Shown: one piece after another, positions 6,095 through 47,265 of the stretch | Position numbering within the stretch: the stretch's first letter is position 1 | Layout: the number at the start of each line of letters is the position of its first letter | From: an uncultured Gammaproteobacteria bacterium | GTDB lineage: Bacteria; Pseudomonadota; Gammaproteobacteria; SZUA-229 | NCBI GenBank assembly: GCA_963847575.1 | Contig: CAWKAL010000045.1 | Location: 14,942 to 78,941 of the forward strand | DNA: 64,000 nt | Direction: 5' to 3' | Translations under genes and position numbers: made by a program | Notes under the pieces: model-generated | What the model saw: the letters and a program-made list of their open reading frames with translations, nothing else | The model's database searches: none | Told to the model about the DNA's origin: nothing

Positions 6095-6226
6095 AGTCCG
6101 CAAATGAACGCGAATAAACGCAAATACGATTTCGTGTGTTACATGCTTTAATGGCATCTGACAGATTTCCAAAAATTTAGATCATACGTTTTTTTGAAAC
6201 AATAAATTCGCGTTTATTTGCGGACT
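6095..6226. repeat. MITE-like hairpin element, copy A (CGCAAATGAA-type arms)
   Basis: Left arm agtccgcaaatgaacgcgaataaacgcaaat (6095-6125); right arm attcgcgtttatttgcggact (6206-6226) is its reverse complement with one 10-nt unit fewer. AT-rich core. Shares an identical 28-mer with copy E. Confidence 0.75.
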
Positions 6227-6906: not shown

Positions 6907-8097
6907 TCAGTGCTCGCCTGTCAGCAGTGACGATAACGGCAGATTGATTTCATCGATAACGACCGGACGATAGTGCTGCTGCACCATATCTGCCGGCAGT
7001 TGTGCCGCCATCGAGGCAGGAATCAGTTCATAGACCAGCGACACGTTTAACTGCAGCGCGTCCGAGCGCGGGGGCAACTCAAACTGTTCAGTGCGGGTCT
7101 CCAGCGGCTTCAGCGCGGTATCGAGCCAGCTCGCCACAGCTTCCCGACCATTGACCTGCAACCCGGCCTTGTTCAGGTAGGTGAATTCATACTGGCGCGT
7201 GCCGGTAGTCACCACCTCGCCTTTGTCCGTGGTCAGTCTGACCGTTAAAACCAGTCTCGCCGGATGCGCGCCGCCAGTTGGAAAATTATGCCCGGTTTTA
7301 ACATTTGACACTTTGACCACGAGCCGGGTTTTATCCTGCACCGGCATAAGCTGTATTTTCGCAGCCCCGGTTAACAACTCCGATGACGCATGTCCGCCCG
7401 GAAACCGGTGCGAGCGATGCGTCGTTTTAGCCGTGCCCGCTTCAGCATCCGCTACCACTGGCATATGACAGTCAGTACACTGGGTATGCTCGGCAAACGC
7501 ACTGCTGCGCCATTCATGATAGGTATTTTCAAGCGGCATACCATTTTGCAATACATCATGATGACATCCTGCACACAGGCTTGAATTTGTCAGCGCTTCA
7601 CTGTGCCTGATTTCGTGCCCAGCGGTAATTTTATTTTCGCCTGCACCGTACATTATCTGGCGCGGGTCCATTACCAGGAAATGCTGGCCCGCACGCTCGC
7701 GCACCTGTGCGACTTTATGGCAAACCGTACAGGTAACGCCTTCGCGACTGACTGGATTTTTAAGCTCGGTATCACCCGTCAGTAATGCCACCGGCGCATG
7801 GCAACGCAAACACGATGAAGCATCCTGTGCCTGTTGAGTTGCATACTTTTGCCAGCGTGATAAATCCTGCTGAAACACCGGGTTGCTGTATGCCTTTGAC
7901 ATCCATGACTGCTTCCATTCAGCATAGATCTGCTGATGACACTGGCGACATTGCTCGGCTGATTGAAAACTTAATGTTGGTGGCTTCTGCACCTTAGCTG
8001 GCGCGGGTGATAGCGCGTCAATCGAAGCCGCGCCCAGGCTTGCGCTGCAAAAAATCATCCCTATGGAAAAAATGCGTGCGTAGAATACGGGAGTCAT
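6907..8097 (-). CDS. pentaheme c-type cytochrome (multiheme cytochrome c family), signal-peptide bearing
   Basis: 396 aa with five CxxCH motifs (CRQCH, CLRCH, CTVCH, CAGCH, CTDCH) and an N-terminal signal sequence. Confidence 0.85.
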   Translation of the reverse strand: MTPVFYARIFSIGMIFCSASLGAASIDALSPAPAKVQKPPTLSFQSAEQCRQCHQQIYAEWKQSWMSKAYSNPVFQQDLSRWQKYATQQAQDASSCLRCHAPVALLTGDTELKNPVSREGVTCTVCHKVAQVRERAGQHFLVMDPRQIMYGAGENKITAGHEIRHSEALTNSSLCAGCHHDVLQNGMPLENTYHEWRSSAFAEHTQCTDCHMPVVADAEAGTAKTTHRSHRFPGGHASSELLTGAAKIQLMPVQDKTRLVVKVSNVKTGHNFPTGGAHPARLVLTVRLTTDKGEVVTTGTRQYEFTYLNKAGLQVNGREAVASWLDTALKPLETRTEQFELPPRSDALQLNVSLVYELIPASMAAQLPADMVQQHYRPVVIDEINLPLSSLLTGEH

Positions 8098-8125
8098 GCC
8101 GGGCGTTTATCGTTTCCAGAAAAAA

Positions 8126-8165
8126 TTCGGGCGGAGCTGTTAATACAGCTCCGCCCGTTTTATTA
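8126..8165 (-). terminator. bidirectional rho-independent terminator downstream of the PEP-CTERM gene
   Basis: gggcggagctgttaatacagctccgccc, 11-bp GC-rich stem with T-runs on both strands. Confidence 0.55.
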
Positions 8166-9112: not shown

Positions 9113-9255
9113 ATATCCTCCTGTCCCATAGCTAATATGCATTGTCCAACCCACCATAGCATACCCAAGTACAGCCAAGGAGTACATTGCTTATCTGACA
9201 GGCGGTACACCGTTCTGGCGATGCAACCACGGCTGAGGGCCGAGACTATGGCGGG

Positions 9256-9284
9256 CAAAAAAGCAGCCCGCAGGCTGCTTTTTA
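9256..9284 (-). terminator. rho-independent terminator after apbC/mrp
   Basis: aaaaaagcagcccgcaggctgcttttt: 7-bp stem agcagcc/ggctgct, A-run on plus strand and T-run on minus strand. Confidence 0.55.
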
Positions 9285-9319
9285 ACGCAGAGGCTCTGTG
9301 GCCCCTGTGGCAAAACAGA

Positions 9320-14913: not shown

Positions 14914-14971
14914 CGCTCGCCTCATAAGTTGTATATACAACTGTTACAATAAAAAAATACATCAGCCTGAT

Positions 14972-22718: not shown

Positions 22719-22729
22719 AAATAATCAGT

Positions 22730-22868
22730 CTACGGATGAACGCAAATGAACACGGATGTAAGATTAGTAAAACAGCACTGCAGTATCAATGCGGACTGTG
22801 CACCAGTATTGCGAAGAAAGATTCTACATTGAATTTATCTGTGTTCATCCGCGTTCATCCGTGGATAA
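22730..22868. repeat. MITE-like hairpin element, copy C (CRGATGAAC-type arms)
   Basis: Left arm ctacggatgaacgcaaatgaacacggatgtaa (22730-22761); right arm ttatctgtgttcatccgcgttcatccgtggataa (22835-22868) is its near reverse complement. Begins 12 nt after the nth stop. Confidence 0.75.
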
Positions 22869-25592: not shown

Positions 25593-26060
25593 ATGCAAGC
25601 CATCATCTCACTCGGATGCGGTATACACGGTCTACTGAACAAACTGGGCGGGTGGTTGCCACAACTGGGGCTGCGTTTCCTGCTGGCATACGAATTCTGG
25701 GAAGCAGGCATTGAAAAATTCAATGGCAGCAACTGGTTCGTTGATTTTGCTGATCAATTTCCATTTCCTTTTAATATCATTCCACCCGACATCAGCTGGT
25801 TCCTGGCGACCTGGACTGAACTCCTCGGTGCTGCTGCGCTGGTCATCGGGCTGGGCACGCGCTTTGCGGCCGCTTCATTAATCATCCTTGACCTGGTTGC
25901 ATGGTATAGCGTGCATGCCGACAGTGGATACAATGTGTGCAGCAACGGCTTTAAACTGCCCCTGATATACCTGGTGATGTTTATACCGCTGTTGCTAAGC
26001 GGCCCTGGTAAGGCCAGTATTGATCACTTGCTGGCTAAACGCTTTGGCTGCAATTCTTAA
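25593..26060 (+). CDS. DoxX family membrane protein
   Basis: 155 aa, 4 TM helices, LRFLLAYEFWEAGIEKF DoxX-like core; common partner in DUF692/DUF2063 RiPP operons. Confidence 0.8.
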   Translation: MQAIISLGCGIHGLLNKLGGWLPQLGLRFLLAYEFWEAGIEKFNGSNWFVDFADQFPFPFNIIPPDISWFLATWTELLGAAALVIGLGTRFAAASLIILDLVAWYSVHADSGYNVCSNGFKLPLIYLVMFIPLLLSGPGKASIDHLLAKRFGCNS

Positions 26061-26078
26061 TACGCAAAGGGTTTTTGT

Positions 26079-26942
26079 ATGAAAACACAACACTACCCGG
26101 TACAGGGGGCAGGCCTCGGACTGCGGCGCGAGATCATGGATGACATGCTCGCGGCCTCACTCGACCAGGTCAGCTTCATGGAAGTGGCGCCTGAAAACTG
26201 GATTGGTGTTGGCGGAAAATTTGGCAAACAATTGCGCGCATTTACCGAGCGTTTTGATTTCGTCTGTCACGGCCTGTCACTTTCCATCGGCAGCCCTTCG
26301 GGTCTCGATGAAGCATTCGTCAAACAGGTTGGGATTTTTCTGCGTGAACATGGCGTGAAGTATTACAGCGAGCATCTGACTTATTGCTCTGACGATGGCC
26401 ATTTGTACGACCTGCTACCGATACCGTTCACCGAAGAAGCCGTGCATTATGTGGCTGAGCGCATTCGTCGTGTGCAGGACATTCTTGGCCAGCAGATTGC
26501 CATGGAAAATGCATCTTATTATTCGCCAGCACCCGGCAGCGACATGAGTGAAATTGATTTTATCAATGCTGTGCTCACAGAAGCTGATTGCGGCTTACTG
26601 ATCGACGTGAATAATATTTATGTCAATTCAGTCAATCACGCGTATGACCCGATTGAATTTATGAAGCAACTGCCAGCAGAACGCATCAGGTATGCGCATA
26701 TTGCCGGCCATTACAATGAGGCTGCTGACCTGATTGTTGATACCCACGGCGCAGATGTAATTGACCCGGTATGGGATATCCTTGACAAAGCCTATGCACA
26801 CTTCGGTGTGTTTCCAACATTGCTGGAACGCGATTTTAATATTCCGCCAGTCACCGAATTACTTGGTGAAGTCGATACTATCATTGAGTACCAGGACAAA
26901 TGGAAACACGATAAAACGCGACAGGGCCGCGCGCATGGCTAA
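26079..26942 (+). CDS. MNIO-family (DUF692, MbnB-like) RiPP maturase
   Basis: 287 aa; TIM-barrel DUF692/UPF0276 pattern (GLGLRRE..., EVAPENW, HGLSLSIGS, YSEHLTY, AMENASYY, YAHIAGH, VDTHGA). Confidence 0.85.
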   Translation: MKTQHYPVQGAGLGLRREIMDDMLAASLDQVSFMEVAPENWIGVGGKFGKQLRAFTERFDFVCHGLSLSIGSPSGLDEAFVKQVGIFLREHGVKYYSEHLTYCSDDGHLYDLLPIPFTEEAVHYVAERIRRVQDILGQQIAMENASYYSPAPGSDMSEIDFINAVLTEADCGLLIDVNNIYVNSVNHAYDPIEFMKQLPAERIRYAHIAGHYNEAADLIVDTHGADVIDPVWDILDKAYAHFGVFPTLLERDFNIPPVTELLGEVDTIIEYQDKWKHDKTRQGRAHG

Positions 26943-27705
26943 CAGTTCACTGCCCGGATTTAAACAGACGCAATACGAATTAACAGCACACCTGCGTGAT
27001 CCGAAGCACAACCCCGCGCCGGCAAATATCGAAGATCGTCGCCTGGCTATTTACCGCGAGCTGATTTATAACAACATCGAAGGTTTCCTTTCCAACGGAT
27101 TCCCGGTGATCCGGTCAATCTACAGCGACGACCACTGGCACAGCATGGTTCGTGATTTTCTCGCCCGCCACCAGTCAAACTCTCCCTATTTCCTGGAAAT
27201 TTCCCAGGAGTTCCTGGCCTACCTGGATAATGAACGAGAGCCTCAGCCTGAAGATCCCACAGGCCTGCTCGAGCTTGCGCATTACGAGTGGGTCGAACTG
27301 GCTCTCAGCGTGGCAGATGAATCGATCGACATGACAGCTGTCGATCCGAACGCCGACCTGCTCGAAGGCCATCCGTTACTGTCGCCTGTCGCCTGGCCGC
27401 TGGCTTACCAGTTTCCGGTACACAAGATGTCAGCAGACTATCTGCCCGAGGTTGCGCCCGAACAACCGACCTATCTCGTGGTCTATCGCAACCGTAACGA
27501 TGAAGTTAAGTTTATGGAGACCAATCCTGTCACCGCACGTCTGCTGCACTTGATACAGCAAAATCCGTCAATCACCGGCAGACAGGCGATTGAACAGATT
27601 GCCGTCGAAATGCAACACCCTAATCCTGACATCGTCATGCAGGGTGGACAAGCTGCACTGCACGAACTGCAGGCGTCCGGCATACTGACGGGGTGCCAGA
27701 AGTGA
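26935..27705 (+). CDS. DUF2063 (MbnC-like) RiPP maturation partner protein
   Basis: 8-nt overlap with the DUF692 gene; MANSSLPGFKQTQYELTAHLRDP..IYRELIYNNIEGFLSNGFP matches the DUF2063 N-terminal domain. Confidence 0.8.
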   Translation: MANSSLPGFKQTQYELTAHLRDPKHNPAPANIEDRRLAIYRELIYNNIEGFLSNGFPVIRSIYSDDHWHSMVRDFLARHQSNSPYFLEISQEFLAYLDNEREPQPEDPTGLLELAHYEWVELALSVADESIDMTAVDPNADLLEGHPLLSPVAWPLAYQFPVHKMSADYLPEVAPEQPTYLVVYRNRNDEVKFMETNPVTARLLHLIQQNPSITGRQAIEQIAVEMQHPNPDIVMQGGQAALHELQASGILTGCQK

Positions 27706-29762: not shown

Positions 29763-30143
29763 ATGAACATCGTAAGACACGGATTATCAATTGGCATCGA
29801 ACATACCGGACATGATTTTTGCATGACGCTAAAAGTGGCGGGTAAGCTCACACACGAAGACTATGAAGTCATGGTGCCGATGCTTGAATCGGCGATCGCA
29901 GGCATCAAGCATCCCGAAATAAAAGCCTTGATCGACGCCACCGAGCTTGAAGGCTGGGAACTGCGTGCGGCCTGGGATGATTTAAAGCTTGGCCTCAAGC
30001 ACGGCAAGGAATTCAAAAAAATTGCCGTGCTCGGCAACAGTAAATGGCAGAAATACGCCAGCAAGATCGGCACGTGGTTTACCTCGGCTGATATAAAATA
30101 TTTCGAGGATACTACTGAAGCGCTAAGCTGGCTTGATGACTAA
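29763..30143 (+). CDS. STAS/SEC14-like DUF3478 family protein
   Basis: 126 aa; ..KVAGKLTHEDYEVMVPMLESAI...ELEGWELRAAWDDLKLGLKHGKEFKKIAVLGN pattern typical of DUF3478. Confidence 0.65.
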   Translation: MNIVRHGLSIGIEHTGHDFCMTLKVAGKLTHEDYEVMVPMLESAIAGIKHPEIKALIDATELEGWELRAAWDDLKLGLKHGKEFKKIAVLGNSKWQKYASKIGTWFTSADIKYFEDTTEALSWLDD

Positions 30144-30168
30144 CTGATTTGAAAAACAGAAGCTTTAG

Positions 30169-30332
30169 ATCCACAGATGAACGCAGATGAACACAGATAA
30201 CGACAAAAAAATCAGGCCGCAAAAAACGCAAAGAACGCGAATCAATAAATAATTATTTTTCGCGCTCTTTGCGTATTTCGCGGCAAATTATTCAGCTTTT
30301 ATCCGTGTTCATCTGCGTTCATCTGCGGATAA
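30169..30332. repeat. MITE-like hairpin element, copy B: composite, with an inner CGCAAA-type hairpin (30216-30284) nested inside CAGATGAAC-type outer arms
   Basis: Outer arms atccacagatgaacgcagatgaacacagataa / ttatccgtgttcatctgcgttcatctgcggataa (2 mismatches in 32). Inner arms gccgcaaaaaacgcaaagaacgcgaa / ttcgcgctctttgcgtatttcgcggc. Confidence 0.75.
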
Positions 30333-30344
30333 GTTGACAGGGAA

Positions 30345-30785
30345 CTACTTGAAAATTTTCTGCCACCAGCGTTGGCGGTTTTTTGGATAGAGCGCGGGCT
30401 CCAGCTCAATGGGGGGAATGCGTGAAAGAATCCAGCCCGGTAACGGTGGTTTTTCGCTGAAACCACAGGTCACACCCAGGTTATTCGGATCGAATATCTT
30501 GATGAAGCCGGGTGTTTGCTGGTGGTCGGCGTAGACAATTCCACAATATTCTTCTTCGTGTTCGCGCCGCAACAGGGCATCCACTTCACTGATAAATGTC
30601 AGCACATCCTGTTGCTTCGACGGATGTTCCGGTGGCGTTTCACCAACGGCATAAATATACCAGCCGTCATCCACCTGGGATTTCAAGCTCGTCCAGAATT
30701 CATCAAGCTGCGGCCAGCGCATTACCGATGTAAAACTGCCACGAAATGCATCCAGAAAACTTTGTTCAACAGAAACATCCATCAC
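30345..30785 (-). CDS. hypothetical protein
   Basis: 146 aa ORF, no recognised motif; convergent with the DUF3478 gene across repeat B. Confidence 0.55.
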   Translation of the reverse strand: MMDVSVEQSFLDAFRGSFTSVMRWPQLDEFWTSLKSQVDDGWYIYAVGETPPEHPSKQQDVLTFISEVDALLRREHEEEYCGIVYADHQQTPGFIKIFDPNNLGVTCGFSEKPPLPGWILSRIPPIELEPALYPKNRQRWWQKIFK

Positions 30786-35698: not shown

Positions 35699-37354
35699 AT
35701 GAAAGCCTCTGATCTATTCGTCAAATGTCTCGAAGCTGAAGGTATTGAATATATCTTCGGCGTACCCGGCGAAGAAAACGCCGATTTCATGATCTCGCTG
35801 GAAGAATCCGAGACCATCAAGTTCATCCTGTGCCGTCATGAACAGGGCGCAGCATTTATGGCGGAAATCTACGGCCGTCTCACCGGTCAGCCTGCCGGCT
35901 GTCTCGGTACGCTCGGCCCGGGCGCCACCAACCTGATTACCGGGGTTGCTGATTCCAATATGGATCGCTCACCCATGCTGGTACTCACCGGCCAGGGCTC
36001 GACCGAAAGACTGCACAAGGAATCACACCAGATCATGGACGTGGTGCACATGTTCGAACCGGTGACCAAGTGGGCGACCACGGTCCTGCACCAGGACAAT
36101 ATCCCGGAAATCGTACGCAAGGCAGTACGCCTGGCGCGCACTGAAAAACCCGGCGCGGTGCATATCGAACTGCCCGAAGACATCGCCAGCAACGACGCCA
36201 AAACCAGCCCGATGCAGCCACGCCGTTTCAGGCGCCCGGTGCCTGACGACAAAATCGTCGACCAGGCATACCAGATCCTGAAAAAAGCCAAACGACCGAT
36301 CATCCTTGCCGGCAACGGCTGTATTCGTAAACGCGCCAGCAAACAGCTGCGCGCCTTTTGTGAAAAAACCGGCATCGGCGTAATCAGCACCTTCATGGCC
36401 AAGGGCTGCGTCGACATGAATGCTGACTACTGCCTGTATACCATCGGCCTGCAGGCCAAGGACGTGGTCGCCTGCGCCATCGATGCCGCGGACGTGGTGC
36501 TATGCCTCGGCTACGACATGGTGGAATACCATCCTGAACTGTGGAATTCAAAACGCGACAAGCACATTATTCATGCCGACTTTTTACCGGCTGAAATCGA
36601 TGAATTTTTTCACCCCGAAACCGAAGTGGTCGGTGACCTGGCGCACGCGCTGTGGATGCTCAACGAACGCGTGGCTGCCGAACAGACACCGCTCAAGTTC
36701 GATTTATCACAACAGGCCGCCACCCGCCGCGACATGAGTGCCGAACTGGAAATGTACAAGGACGACAAAACCAGCGGTGTCATCAAACCGCAAAAAGTGC
36801 TGTGGGACGTACGCCAGGTGATGGGCCGCCACGACGTGCTGCTGTCCGATGTCGGCGCACATAAAATGTGGATTGCTCGGCATTATCAGTGCCACGAACC
36901 CAATACCTGCTTAATACCCAATGGTTTTTGCTCGATGGGCTTTGCCCTGCCCGGCGCGATCGCCGCCGATATCGTGTTCCCGCAAAAACGCATCCTCGCG
37001 ATCTGCGGTGATGCCGGCTTCATGATGAACATGCAGGAAATGGAAACTGCACGACGGCTGAATTCAGACATCGTTGTCATGGTGTGGGAAGACAAGGAAT
37101 ACGGCCTGATCGCCTGGAAACAACAGGCACATTTCGGCAAGCACACCGATCTGTCATTTGGTAACCCCGACTGGCTGAAACTGGCCGAAGCCTTCGGCTG
37201 GCACGGCCACTTCGTCGACAACAGCGAGAACCTGGTCGACACCCTGGAAACCGCGTTCGAAGAAATGGGCCCAAGCCTGGTGGTGATACCGATCGACTAC
37301 GACGAAAACATGAAACTCACCAAACGGCTGGGTGATATTGCGTGCCCGATTTGA
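35699..37354 (+). CDS. acetolactate-synthase-like thiamine-pyrophosphate enzyme (AlsS family)
   Basis: 551 aa; TPP N-domain (FGVPGEEN..RHEQGAAFMAEIYGRLTGQPAGCLGTLGPGATN) and C-terminal TPP-binding GDAGFMMN motif. Confidence 0.85.
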   Translation: MKASDLFVKCLEAEGIEYIFGVPGEENADFMISLEESETIKFILCRHEQGAAFMAEIYGRLTGQPAGCLGTLGPGATNLITGVADSNMDRSPMLVLTGQGSTERLHKESHQIMDVVHMFEPVTKWATTVLHQDNIPEIVRKAVRLARTEKPGAVHIELPEDIASNDAKTSPMQPRRFRRPVPDDKIVDQAYQILKKAKRPIILAGNGCIRKRASKQLRAFCEKTGIGVISTFMAKGCVDMNADYCLYTIGLQAKDVVACAIDAADVVLCLGYDMVEYHPELWNSKRDKHIIHADFLPAEIDEFFHPETEVVGDLAHALWMLNERVAAEQTPLKFDLSQQAATRRDMSAELEMYKDDKTSGVIKPQKVLWDVRQVMGRHDVLLSDVGAHKMWIARHYQCHEPNTCLIPNGFCSMGFALPGAIAADIVFPQKRILAICGDAGFMMNMQEMETARRLNSDIVVMVWEDKEYGLIAWKQQAHFGKHTDLSFGNPDWLKLAEAFGWHGHFVDNSENLVDTLETAFEEMGPSLVVIPIDYDENMKLTKRLGDIACPI

Positions 37355-37374
37355 TGTGATGAAAAACTTCATAA

Positions 37375-37547
37375 GCGAAACCACAGAGGCACAGAGTACA
37401 CAGAGGGAAAACAATTACTGTTGTTTAAAGCATTTGAAATATTGTATTTATTCAACCAAAATAATTGCGTCTAACTTGCGTATGGTTTATTTGACTTACA
37501 ATAAATTATTGTTTTCTCTGTGTACTCTGTGCCTCTGTGGTTTCGCC
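37375..37547. repeat. MITE-like hairpin element, copy F (CACAGAGG-type arms)
   Basis: Arms gcgaaaccacagaggcacagagtacacagag(ggaaaac) at 37375-37411 and gttttctctgtgtactctgtgcctctgtggtttcgcc at 37511-37547: a 31-nt perfect inverted repeat flanking an AT-rich core. Confidence 0.8.
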
Positions 37548-37627
37548 TTTTGCTTTTATATTCACATACACTACTTTGCGAATACGCGGTGCATTATTGT
37601 TAAAATCTGTGATTAACAGGAAATATT

Positions 37628-41858: not shown

Positions 41859-41882
41859 CTGGCAGCAGAAATAAAATAATTC

Positions 41883-41986
41883 TAGCCGCAAATGAACGCG
41901 AATAAACGCAAATAAAGATGATTAGTATAGTGCGCCGCAGGCGCAGAATAAAACATTTTGCGTTCATTCGCGTTCATTTGCGGCTA
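41883..41986. repeat. MITE-like hairpin element, copy E (CGCAAATGAA-type arms, same subfamily as copy A)
   Basis: Arms tagccgcaaatgaacgcgaataaacgcaaa / tttgcgttcattcgcgttcatttgcggcta: 30-nt inverted repeat with 1 mismatch; small GC hairpin (tgcgccgcaggcgca) in the core. Confidence 0.8.
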
Positions 41987-42010
41987 AATAATTCTGACCT
42001 TCATAGAAAA

Positions 42011-42907: not shown

Positions 42908-43137
42908 CAGTCCACATATGAACGCGGATGAACACAGATTAAAAATAAGTATGTTGTTAGATAATTAGAATGACGATATTTATTGTGATAATAGTGTGCA
43001 GATTGTCGGAGATTTAGTAGTCGCATAACGCCCTCGCTTTTACCTTAAATATATTTACTTCCGCAGCCGCTTAATAATTTTAACTTCTATTTTTCTGTAC
43101 AGCATTCATCTGCGTTTATCTGCGTTCATCCGTGGAC
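42908..43137. repeat. MITE-like hairpin element, copy D (CRGATGAAC-type arms, largest core)
   Basis: Arms agtccacatatgaacgcggatgaacacagat / atctgcgtttatctgcgttcatccgtggact; 165-bp AT-rich core; the right arm ends exactly at the stop codon of the adenosyltransferase gene. Confidence 0.75.
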
Positions 43138-43674: not shown

Positions 43675-43714
43675 TGTGGGTGTTGTCGTTATGTTCCTAA
43701 ATAGTTAATGTGCA

Positions 43715-43975
43715 GCTTACCGCAGGTGCCTGTTGTAGAGCCATTCTGCAACAGGTTAAACGGGAAGTCAGTAAGCGATTCTGGAGTCACTGAATATTTT
43801 TTCAGCGATCTCGAGTAGTTACAAACGCAATTCTGACGCTGCCCCCGCAACGGTGATTGAGTCAAAGCCCTGTCGTACACCACTGTAAGCATGCTTATGG
43901 GAAGGTGACAGGCGCAAAGTCGCAAGACACTCATCAGCCCGGAGACCGGCCCGTGGTGCCCTCTAACTTACACGC
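43715..43975 (+). promoter_or_regulatory. cobalamin (AdoCbl) riboswitch in the btuB leader
   Basis: Core-like cgggaagtcagtaagcgattctggagtcactg; cactg...gggaaggtg; B12 box agcccggagaccggcc at 43936-43951; GC hairpin overlapping the btuB RBS. Confidence 0.55.
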
Positions 43976-44000
43976 GCGGCGGGCGCGGGAGCAATACCCC

Positions 44001-45825
44001 ATGATTAAACCTCTCTGCGTTGCCATACTGGCAACACTCTGTCTGCAGGCGCAGGCTGAAACACGACTACATCCGATCATTACTTCATCACGCGTGGCAC
44101 AAAGCGCCGACCAGACCATGACGGCCGTCAGTGTGTTAACACGTGAAGATATCGCGCAAAGCCAGTCGCAATCAACCGTTGAATTATTGCGCGAGCGCAT
44201 TCCGGGACTGGACTTCCTTACCACTGGCGGCAGCGGCCACCAGGTAAGCACGTTTTTACGCGGCACCAGCTCTGACCAGTTCCTGTTGATGATCGATGGC
44301 AATATCGTCGGCTCGGCCACCACCGGCTCGGCCGCAATCGAACTGATCCCGCTTGATAATATCGAGCGCATCGAAGTGATCCGCGGACCGCGCTCATCGC
44401 TGTACGGCTCCGAAGCCATCGGCGGCGTGATCCAGGTGTTTACCCGCAGTGATAATAAAACCACGGCGTCGATCACCAGCGGATCACTGCATACCGCGGC
44501 CGCAAGCGCAGCCACCCAGTTTGGCAATGACAGTACCACGCTTAACATCGCGGTGAATCATTACCAGACTGAAGGTTTCGATGTCACCAACGACACCGAA
44601 AACGACAGCGATGGCTACGACAACGACTCGGTCAACCTGCGTTTGCAACATGCGCTCAATCCACGTACGCGGTTATTTGCCAATGCCCTGTATGCCGACG
44701 GCAATACCCGGTTTGATAATGACACGTTTGATAATGCATCGGATTCGATCCAGCAAAACTACCAGCTGGGCGCCGACACCGATGTGAATTCAGCCTGGAA
44801 CAGCCGGTTTGAAATCGGCCAGAGCAAGGACGAACTTGTCACCGTGCGCAACAGCCGTGATTTTTTTACGCCCGGCCTTATTAATAATGAAGTCACGCTG
44901 TTCATCACCCGGCGCGACCAGGCACACTGGATCAATACGCTTAATTTTGGTGACACCGGCCAGGCCAGTCTCGGCGCTGATTACATTAATGACAAGGTTG
45001 AAGCTACCACGCCATACACGGAAAACCAGCGCAGCAATCGCGCGGTGTATGCCCTGGTGCAGGACAAGTTCGGCCGCAATCAGCTGCAACTGGCGGCACG
45101 ACTCGATGACAATGAAGCCTTTGGTAGTCACACCACCGGCAGCATCGCCTGGGCGTATGACATTAGTGCCAGTGAACGCATTCGGCTTTCACAGGGCACG
45201 GCGTTTATCGCACCATCGTTCAATGACCTGTATTTTGTCGATCCGTTTTTCAGCGGCAACCCGGATCTTGAACCGGAAACATCACGCACATCGGAAATTG
45301 CCTTTACCACCAGCCAGCCCTGGGGCAGCTGGCAACTGAATGTGTATCGCACCCTGATCAAAAACCTGATCGTGCTCAACAACAGCTTCACCTCGGTGGA
45401 AAACGCCGCGCGCGCCAGCATTCGCGGGGTTGAATCCGAGCTCGATGTCCGCCGTGATGCCTGGAACCTGAATTTCAACCTGTCAGTGATCGACCCGGTG
45501 GATAAAACCACGCGGCCTGGTGTTGCAGGGCCGCGCGAAACAAACCCTCAAGCTCAGTGCTGCACGCAATTTTGGCAGTGTCCAGTTGGGCACCAGTGTG
45601 CTGGCACAGGGCCCGCGCTATGCCAACGCGAGCAACAGCATCGAGCTGCCGGGATACGGCATTATCAATCTGACGGCTGCTAAAACCATCGACCAGCACT
45701 GGCAGCTGAAAGCACGGCTAGAGAACCTGCTGGACAAGGAATATTCGACCTCGATCGATTTTTTCCAGAACACCAGCAACAACACGCCGATTGCACTGTT
45801 TGTCAGCCTGCATTACCAGCAATAA
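44001..45825 (+). CDS. btuB: TonB-dependent vitamin B12 receptor BtuB, with an apparent frameshift near 45510-45540
   Basis: Start MIKPLCVAILATLCLQAQA (signal peptide); TonB box region; plug domain; C-terminal barrel continues in a second frame (..LQGRAKQTLKLSAARNFG...LFVSLHYQQ). The longer listed ORF start lies inside the riboswitch. Confidence 0.8.
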
Positions 45826-46095: not shown

Positions 46096-47076
<981 letters not shown>

Positions 47077-47084
47077 AAAATATT

Positions 47085-47236
47085 AACCGCAGAGGCGCAG
47101 AGGACGCAGAGAAAACATAATTATTGTTAACAGCAATAATTAATAAAAATATTATTACAAACCCTGGACATACATAATCAAGTGTTTTTGTTTTTACATA
47201 AAAATCCTTCTCTGCGTCCTCTGCGTCTCCGCGGTT
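47085..47236. repeat. MITE-like hairpin element, copy G (CGCAGAGG-type arms)
   Basis: Arms aaccgcagaggcgcagaggacgcagagaa / ttctctgcgtcctctgcgtctccgcggttt, 27/29 complementary; 90-bp AT-rich core; starts 9 nt after the moxR stop. Confidence 0.8.
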
Positions 47237-47265
47237 TAGGCTTTTTTTGTTTCTAAAGAATCAAC

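Follow-up and report, generated by a model that had tools for sequence, protein, structure and literature searches.

A hairpin nested within a hairpin between convergent genes of an uncultured gammaproteobacterium

REPINs, doublets of repetitive extragenic palindromes (REPs), are extragenic hairpins with two conserved inverted ends and a less conserved spacer; they show compensatory changes and no target-site duplications, and they occur in hundreds of copies and in tandem clusters (PMC3116915). The REPs that adjoin genes for REP-associated tyrosine transposases (RAYTs) are short palindromes in their own right (Table S2 of PMC3116915). Bacterial miniature inverted-repeat transposable elements (MITEs) are small, non-coding, intergenic, multi-copy sequences that end in inverted repeats and have a highly structured predicted RNA (PMC3184786). 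The TAACTGA repeats of Beggiatoaceae, Cyanobacteria and Bacteroidetes lie as direct repeats shortly upstream of start codons, a single indirect repeat being the exception, and their type of 7-nt unit is common to distant phyla without a known mechanism (PMC4679880). Here we describe element B, a 162-base stretch of intergenic DNA between the stop codons of two convergent genes, which folds into two hairpins, one at the tip of the other. It was found in a 64,000-nt stretch (positions 14,942 to 78,941 of contig CAWKAL010000045.1 from an uncultured Gammaproteobacteria bacterium), hereafter the window.

Among described systems REPINs come closest to the family of B, which likewise consists of inverted-end hairpins that can fold as single-stranded DNA or mRNA, with compensatory changes, no target-site duplications, an extragenic position, hundreds of copies and tandem clusters. 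The arms of the family, however, are direct arrays of 8–10-nt units, the core is variable, and several stacked unit types coexist. Bacterial MITEs (Nezha, Correia/NEMIS, ERIC, RUP and Chunjie) share with it small size, lack of coding capacity, intergenic position, inverted-repeat ends and multiple copies, but they have direct target-site duplications and ends in common with insertion sequences, neither of which was found in the loci analysed here, and the family cores differ widely. Cyanobacterial short tandemly repeated repetitive (STRR) heptamers and the TAACTGA repeats resemble it as short head-to-tail intergenic units (7–10 nt) shared across phyla, whereas the units of B are 9 and 10 nt long, form inverted pairs that make hairpins downstream of stop codons, and nest; CAGTTGG or ATAACTG-like heptamers occupy the B site itself in relatives of the window genome. 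Intrinsic terminators are also stem-loops just past stop codons, and A and T runs accompany the element at 47075–47246 and, on the minus strand, the inner hairpin of B; by contrast, family stems reach 26–32 bp or more, with large loops, mostly no U-tract and a conserved periodic sequence, and went undetected by a terminator scan. Foldback (FB) elements of Drosophila and other eukaryotes have inverted tandem-repeat arms of variable length around a variable or absent middle, and tend to cause inversions. They are eukaryotic and much larger, some copies carry open reading frames (ORFs), and they make target duplications; their likeness to the B family is one of architecture, not homology.

We file the class under interspersed palindromic repeats and interpret B, a repeat at gene 3′ ends, as structure-maintained and akin to REPINs and foldback elements. 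The evidence tips slightly towards B being a copy of a two-layer foldback repeat, with a nonamer hairpin (CGCRAADAA) at the apex of a decamer hairpin (CRCRGATGAA), shaped by nesting, copying and hairpin-based turnover. The two layers are members of a single superfamily of intergenic hairpins whose elements have no target-site duplications and covarying arms, lie mostly at gene 3′ ends and occur in many bacterial phyla.

Architecture and fold of element B

Both inverted repeats of B lie where the initial annotation had placed them (repeat finder; fold z −12 to −18; Table 1). The outer arms pair at 30 of their 32 positions (94% complementary, 98 nt between them) and the inner arms at 23 of 26 (88%). 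The inner hairpin had been described as asymmetrically placed and as of the same type as the arms of two other window elements, A and E. It is in fact centred, with spacers of 15 and 14 nt, and its arms have a 9-nt period, CGC recurring every 9 nt in CGCAAAAAA CGCAAAGAA CGCGAA as read from the sequence, against a 10-nt period in the arms of A and E (CGCAAATGAA). The arms of A and E and those of B, C and D are one decamer family, CRCRRATGAA, and the inner arms of B are a separate nonamer type, CGCRAADAA, found within the window only inside B. The composite is real and does join subfamilies, as the annotation had proposed, although the inner partner is the nonamer type and not that of A and E. 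The 10-mer TTCAGCTTTT (30290–30299) lies mostly in the right spacer, its last base falling within the outer right arm.

The RNA fold of 30150–30345 has a free energy of −106.7 kcal/mol (z −17.6) on the minus strand and of −85.2 kcal/mol (z −12.0) on the plus strand, and none of 200 shuffles folds as well on either strand. The minus-strand fold is better by 21 kcal/mol because the mismatches there are G·U; on this strand the spacers pair as well, so that the whole element is one nearly continuous hairpin, and a T7 run follows the inner hairpin (A7/T7 run at 30205–30211). This run comes after a 26-bp stem with a 17-nt loop, unlike the short stem of an intrinsic terminator.

Seven elements of the same build lie in the window, about one per 9 kb, and supply all of its ten longest true (non-overlapping) inverted repeats. 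Each lies in intergenic DNA and begins 0 to 38 nt past a stop codon, two between convergent genes, five between tandem genes and none between divergent genes. Their arms start with NCCRC and continue with 2–4 tandem units, each built of CRC and a tail rich in purines; these units read CRCRRATGAA in five elements and CRCAGAGNN in two, and the AT-rich cores are mutually unrelated. The unit and the terminal CCRC motif of the outer left arm of B are common to 76 elements in other genomes, among the matches listed.

An anchored alignment of 44 copies, compared with 500 shuffles, showed that the pairing is maintained: 90% of alignment cells are paired and 17 of 32 pairs have changed on both sides, values that none of the 500 shuffles reached. 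The base just outside CCRC forms AU 18 times, GC 16 times and UA 8 times, with one mispair. As these bases vary and yet stay complementary, the hairpin itself is what is kept.

Target-site duplications, which the annotation had raised for the surroundings of 30216 and 30284, are present neither there nor in the family at large. Left and right flanks are as similar in 76 decamer and 74 nonamer copies as in a shuffled-pair control, giving no duplication signal, and the same comparison for the inner hairpin of B gave 6/9. These results make it very improbable that B is a classical nested MITE, that is, a DDE-mobilized cut-and-paste element that jumped into another MITE and duplicated its target. 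Such an origin would account for the terminal inverted repeats and independent existence of both layers, for the likeness of the sequences flanking the inner hairpin (AAAAAAATCAG and AAATTATTCAG, 9/11 identical) and for a perfect 10-nt direct repeat, AAATAATTCT, that flanks element E (41873–41882 and 41987–41996) in both the window strain and a close relative. However, the ortholog on L001, a contig of that relative, has no repeat flanking the inner hairpin, the outermost bases of the elements vary but remain complementary rather than direct, and no insertion sequence with these ends was seen in the fetched loci.

Nesting, probable copying and spread of the hairpin types

The initial annotation had offered two explanations for the composite, the insertion of one family member into another and a modular architecture of stacked hairpins. 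In favour of insertion, the nonamer hairpin stands alone in most loci (among the metagenome matches listed), it is usually missing from decamer-armed elements (in the window C and D and, among the matches listed, 76 elements from 57 loci), and at the B site of an 84%-amino-acid-identical relative (L131) the same outer arms enclose a core that has, instead of the nonamer hairpin, a 13-nt mini-hairpin, GCGCCTGCGGCGC. The frequency of nesting and the intact element within a decayed one in L382, both described below, also speak for insertion. Duplications are missing, and no clean empty site was found. In favour of modularity, L228 carries a B-like two-layer unit, 81–83% identical to B over about 174 nt with its spacers included, between genes for proteins of 230 and 362 amino acids and not the gene pair of B; a second composite subfamily (L144, L194, L219 and L251) has the right spacer ACAAATAACATGTTTAATATC in common and non-homologous flanks. 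Both explanations therefore hold in part, with the reservation that duplications are absent and the process is not classical transposition.

Nesting is frequent. In a strict test, 14.5% of nonamer hairpins were enclosed, at a distance of no more than 80 nt, by an exactly complementary outer pair of 11 nt or longer, about 14-fold above a 1% control, and by eye at least 24 of 69 nonamer hairpins were nested. They sit inside decamer arms (L144, L167, L170, L194, L214, L219, L228, L251 and L258), CGCAAATGAA arms (L155, L213 and L229), CACAGAGG arms (L148, L202 and L216), heptamer or hexamer arrays (L181, L246 and L233) and classical REP doublets (L199 and L231); the order is reversed in L146 and L180. 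REP-like doublets of GTAGGAGCGGCTTTAGCCGCGAAT and its inverse, with a nonamer hairpin in the spacer, occur at about 930–1090 of L199, at about 2350–2520 of L231 and in the left flank of L258, and the REP 3′ half AGCCGCGAAT is the start of an E-type arm in L379 (TAGCCGCGAATGAAC). The metagenomic loci L161, L181, L188 and L246 hold nonamer hairpins flanked by TTGCGGA, GGCTTG, CCAAAAT/CCGCAAT and GGGACTC arrays. The repertoire of unit types is far larger than the three in the window; related arrays have up to about 15 copies of 7-nt units, compared with 2–4 copies of 8–10-nt units in the elements here.

This distribution suggests that one hairpin type may have come to sit at the centre (apical loop or core) of another, very often in this family, and that the resulting composite would then itself have been copied to other loci. 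Decamer arms with a core holding the 13-nt mini-hairpin GCGCCGCAGGCGC form a unit of about 115 nt, which related genomes have at three or four separate loci. The mini-hairpin occurs at 41932–41944 in E, at 1662–1674 of L056, at 851–863 of L131 and at the E and 37k sites of L382, an 86%-amino-acid-identical relative. We considered it as a stand-alone repeat and rejected this, as it is present only within the cores of decamer-armed elements. At the E site of L382, CAGATGAAC arms surround an E-homologous core in place of the CGCAAATGAA arms of the window, the two differing solely at two purine positions of each unit, in both arms.

A degenerate 17-mer of the decamer arm matched at least 119 loci in species-representative genomes (596 Gb, in which about 550 single chance matches are expected by our own arithmetic). 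Among the matches listed, 57 loci carry 71 inverted decamer pairs of 56–580 bp with the same build, in Planctomycetota, Acidobacteriota, Verrucomicrobiota and Alpha-, Beta- and Gammaproteobacteria. The cores measure between about 14 and more than 400 nt. Cultured carriers include ‘Candidatus Thiodictyon syntrophicum’ Cad16T (copies on NZ_CP020372.1), in which two elements, both unannotated, lie on plasmid pTs485 inside an operon, between fwdB and fwdA, and the cyanobacteria Gloeothece PCC 7424 and Calothrix PCC 7716, whose plasmids have single arms, both arm types being represented. The nonamer-arm pattern matched at least 120 metagenome loci, with an inverted partner for 79 of the matches listed. 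The decamer pattern matched at least 120 loci in IMG/VR predicted viral contigs (L259–L378), which may be true phage DNA or host fragments; among the matches listed, 14 of 120 have a close inverted pair and 45 a tandem-unit arm alone.

The element class is therefore very widespread, and apparently it is uncatalogued. Exact 16- to 18-mers of the arm types had no occurrence in the searchable literature, and Rfam searches (gathering score on the window and 18 loci, permissive E-value on the element) returned nothing relevant: their output comprised a cobalamin riboswitch, tRNA, an unrelated Acido-Lenti-1 match and chance matches to miRNA hairpins only. We dropped likenesses of the arms, noted by eye, to DnaA boxes, CsrA sites, attC and Mu ends, which fit only some variants.

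Several further arrangements were seen among the matched loci. Four whole elements stand in tandem with a 309-nt period in a Wenzhouxiangellaceae locus (L043, 5430–6568), a left arm and spacer are triplicated with a period of about 37 nt in the left flank of the L251 element, and six decamer units follow one another at 7225–7290 of L093. A ‘Candidatus Methanoperedens’ contig from an archaeal metagenome-assembled genome (L020, 1912–2397) has decamer-type tandem units at two sites, on one strand only.

Given the closeness of the family to REPINs, its arms might be REPs whose doublet a single-copy RAYT, an IS200-like tyrosine transposase, moves as a single-stranded DNA hairpin, nesting being insertion into single-stranded loops. 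The inverted conserved ends, the less conserved spacer, the compensatory changes, the lack of duplications, the extragenic position, the tandem clusters (L043 and L251) and the nonamer hairpins within classical REP doublets are all in keeping with this. The arms are, however, direct tandem units without an internal palindrome, in contrast to the short palindromic REPs beside RAYT genes, and the pair length is highly variable, in contrast to fixed REPIN spacing. No RAYT was seen among the ORFs beside arm arrays in the available sequence, whole genomes not having been searched. We regard this origin as unlikely.

Turnover between strains and at orthologous sites

Six elements could be compared between the window and a strain about 96% identical in DNA (contigs L001–L004 and L379–L381). 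Element C matches its counterpart at 97.1%, as the reverse complement only, and E at 88.6% as the reverse complement, with one extra unit. The others align forward: 47k is 100% identical, 37k 97.7% and D 92.1%, minus one unit. B is the most diverged, at 69% identity along the alignment, in which 86% of the window positions have a match; it too aligns forward, not flipped, and the two-layer element at this site in the other strain, although built as in B, is strongly altered, with one 10-nt unit more or fewer depending on the contig and an extra partial right arm. The ends of the inner hairpin read GCCGC/GCGGC in the window and GTCCGC/GCGGAC in L001, an indel mirrored in both arms. With two of six elements flipped and units gained or lost, whole-element inversion between the arms is frequent and unit number readily changes.

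Such inversion could point to invertons, in which the arms would be recombinase sites and the orientation of a promoter in the core would control a neighbouring gene. The flipping of C and E between near-identical strains is what this explanation predicts, but no promoter-like site was found in the cores of B, C or E, B and E lie between gene 3′ ends, elements recur about once per 9 kb, and B is not flipped. We find it hardly credible.

In more distant relatives the arms at orthologous sites persist and the cores and flanks do not. The B site, downstream of a STAS gene (Table 1), has no repeat-armed element in an 81% relative. In relatives at 75–77% amino-acid identity it has arrays of 2.5 to about 15 CAGTTGG heptamers opposite inverted CCAACTG units, and TTCAGCTTTT recurs just inside the right arm although the arms are of another type. 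The arrays begin 0–2 nt past the STAS stop codon (L134, 10385–10438; L135, 2540–2625; L136, 10385–10445; L138, 2967–3020). Across relatives the site is thus repeatedly occupied by hairpins of differing unit types. At the 37k site, a relative of about 76% amino-acid identity keeps the arms and the outer stem GCGAAACCACAGAGGCACAGAG around an unrelated core, and in L382 the CACAGAGG-type arms have decayed and enclose an intact decamer element with the mini-hairpin core. Together these comparisons show that elements, once in place, evolve by gain and loss of units, arm-matched changes, whole-element inversion between the arms and core replacement.

Could the elements then have grown where they stand, without mobility? 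Slippage would make units in one arm, intrastrand template switching would copy them to the other, and the layers would be successive growth phases of a local palindrome, for example an old terminator. Differences in unit number between strains and between arms, the concerted change of arms, the alternation by lineage of decamer arms and CAGTTGG arrays at a site that keeps TTCAGCTTTT, and outer stems that resemble locus-specific extensions all speak for such growth. It leaves unexplained, however, the near-identical arms and core at unrelated loci (the B site of L131, the E and 37k sites of L382, and L056) and the recurrence of the whole composite in L228, and it predicts locus-specific units where the units recur across phyla; metagenomic data also suggest homologous cores at non-homologous loci of one genome. 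Growth in place as the sole process seems improbable to us.

As the mechanism in our preferred reading we propose that the single-stranded or cruciform (extruded) hairpin is the substrate; breakage or template switching at this hairpin, with the opposite arm or further copies of the family serving for repair, would produce flipping, homogenization of arms, gain and loss of units, and replacement of cores or centres without duplications.

Possible RNA role, implications and other features of the window

From where they lie, how stable they are and how their arms persist at orthologous sites, we infer that the elements may act as RNA 3′-end hairpins that insulate, end or stabilize the transcripts of flanking genes. 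Decamer elements lie in 22 convergent, 27 tandem and 8 divergent contexts (crude ORF calls, among the matches listed), and in tandem contexts outside the window G·U outnumbers A·C by 26 to 10 on the sense strand (also with crude ORF calls).

It is a different matter whether function alone could explain B. In that case B would be a bidirectional terminator or RNA-stabilizing hairpin, the inner hairpin with its A7/T7 run would be the terminator of the minus-strand gene, and the likeness between copies would be convergent or selected. The closeness of B to two stop codons (15 and 26 nt), its very stable fold, 21 kcal/mol better on the strand where the T7 run follows the inner hairpin, the retention of arms at orthologous sites with one type replaced by another, and the enrichment of convergent regions agree with this. 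Yet the terminator scan reports nothing in B while the window has canonical short terminators elsewhere (8121–8164 and 9246–9275), a conserved 9–10-nt unit is unnecessary for termination, strand bias is inconsistent within the window, elements flip, and the Thiodictyon elements lie inside an operon. We give a purely functional origin little credence.

Several observations weigh against the reading that we prefer. For the RNA role, the scan found no terminator-like site within 30169–30330 and most elements have no U-tract downstream; with the Thiodictyon elements lying within an operon, simple termination is at most a candidate role. The window's own elements have no consistent sense-strand folding bias, and the gene calls behind the cross-phylum strand test are crude. 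For mobility, placement of one hairpin into the centre of another is inferred from the distribution, no insertion with a clean empty site having been caught. If the family never duplicates its target, there is no explanation for the 10-nt repeat flanking E, the one such repeat in about 150 elements compared. No enzyme was found, the ORFs beside arm arrays being ordinary (for example a peptidase, a decarboxylase and an AraC-type regulator). Finally, a purely structural or recombinational process does not account for the same decamer and nonamer in distant phyla.

Among about 2 Mb of fetched loci, which do not cover whole genomes, there was also no ORF-bearing (autonomous) copy; candidates in which arm pairs lie 0.7–4 kb apart were rejected, as the pairs merely flank ordinary genes or are separate elements.

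The occurrence of the same 9- and 10-nt units in distant phyla points to a shared trans-acting factor or to horizontally moving machinery. Possibly, although we are doubtful, the hairpins are traces left by an undescribed system, shared horizontally, that reads CRC-periodic arms as a hairpin and places copies without target-site duplications at the apex of other hairpins (family members, REP doublets and terminators). Palindromes set one inside another like the layers of an onion would result at the 3′ ends of genes of Planctomycetota, Acidobacteriota, Verrucomicrobiota, Proteobacteria and probably also of Cyanobacteria (so far with single arms), and the heptameric STRR and TAACTGA repeats would be another output of a like process. 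If a single machinery does stand behind the family, it would amount to a novel form of DNA mobility or repair directed by structure.

REP, REPIN, MITE and STRR sequences have been known for decades, and their origin and cross-phylum spread are long-standing questions. The B locus offers a concrete handle on this question, with recognizable periodic arms, cultured carriers, no target-site duplications, complementary arms, preferential stacking in hairpins and flips between near-identical strains. In practice, the elements break metagenome assemblies at fixed points, can be mistaken for terminators or small RNAs, and could serve as fine-scale strain markers. Two related contigs end within a CAGTTGG array, which indicates that such repeats break assemblies. 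L385, a public 1,178-nt contig identical to the window and from the same strain, starts exactly at the inner edge of the right arm of E, and its other end is inside the right arm of D (window positions about 41958 and 43135); these breaks at arm boundaries fit assembly forks induced by repeats or by orientation.

Table 1. Coordinates in the window of the family members, the parts of element B and its neighbouring genes
Feature	Position	Strand	Remarks
Member A	6095..6226		Decamer arms, CGCAAATGAA variant
Member C	22729..22865		Decamer arms; wholly inverted in the ~96% identical strain
Member B	30169..30330		Two-layer
Member 37k	37354..37567		CACAGAGNN units, long outer stem
Member E	41883..41986		Decamer arms, core holds mini-hairpin GCGCCGCAGGCGC; core inverted in the ~96% strain
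Member D	42910..43137		Decamer arms; ~165-nt core kept in the 86%-amino-acid relative
Member 47k	47075..47246		CGCAGAGG units, A-run and T-run on flanks; 100% identical in the ~96% strain
B outer left arm	30169..30200		ATCCAC + decamer units CAGATGAACG, CAGATGAACA, CAGATAA
B left spacer	30201..30215		A-rich, CGACAAAAAAATCAG; from sequence; part-paired with the right spacer in the minus-strand fold
B inner left arm	30216..30241		GCCGC + nonamer units CGCAAAAAA, CGCAAAGAA, CGCGAA
B inner-hairpin apical loop	30242..30258		AT-rich, 17 nt; from sequence, repeat finder and fold
B inner right arm	30259..30284		From repeat finder
B right spacer	30285..30298		AAATTATTCAGCTT; from sequence
B outer right arm	30299..30330		From repeat finder
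Upstream convergent gene	29763..30143	+	STAS/SpoIIAA-like protein (PF11964); stop 26 nt before B
Downstream convergent gene	30345..30785	-	145/146-amino-acid protein, no Pfam match; stop 15 nt from B

An exact-protein look-up of the window's STAS protein gave no identical record. Upstream of the thioredoxin-like and STAS genes, 25593–27705 holds a cluster of DoxX, MbnB/TglH/ChrH-family (DUF692) and HvfC-like genes, as annotated from the orthologous locus L001. At 9240–9315 a canonical bidirectional terminator, AAAAAAGCAGCCCGCAGGCTGCTTTTT, is directly followed by degenerate CRCAGAG-like units, CGCAGAGGCTCTGTGGCCCCTGTGG, perhaps the remains of a family member next to an ordinary terminator. The cobalamin riboswitch returned by Rfam (RF00174, 93 bits) lies at 43707–43968 on the plus strand, upstream of a gene for a TonB-dependent receptor (about 43857–45683), and a gene of the cob(I)alamin adenosyltransferase family adjoins it on the opposite strand.

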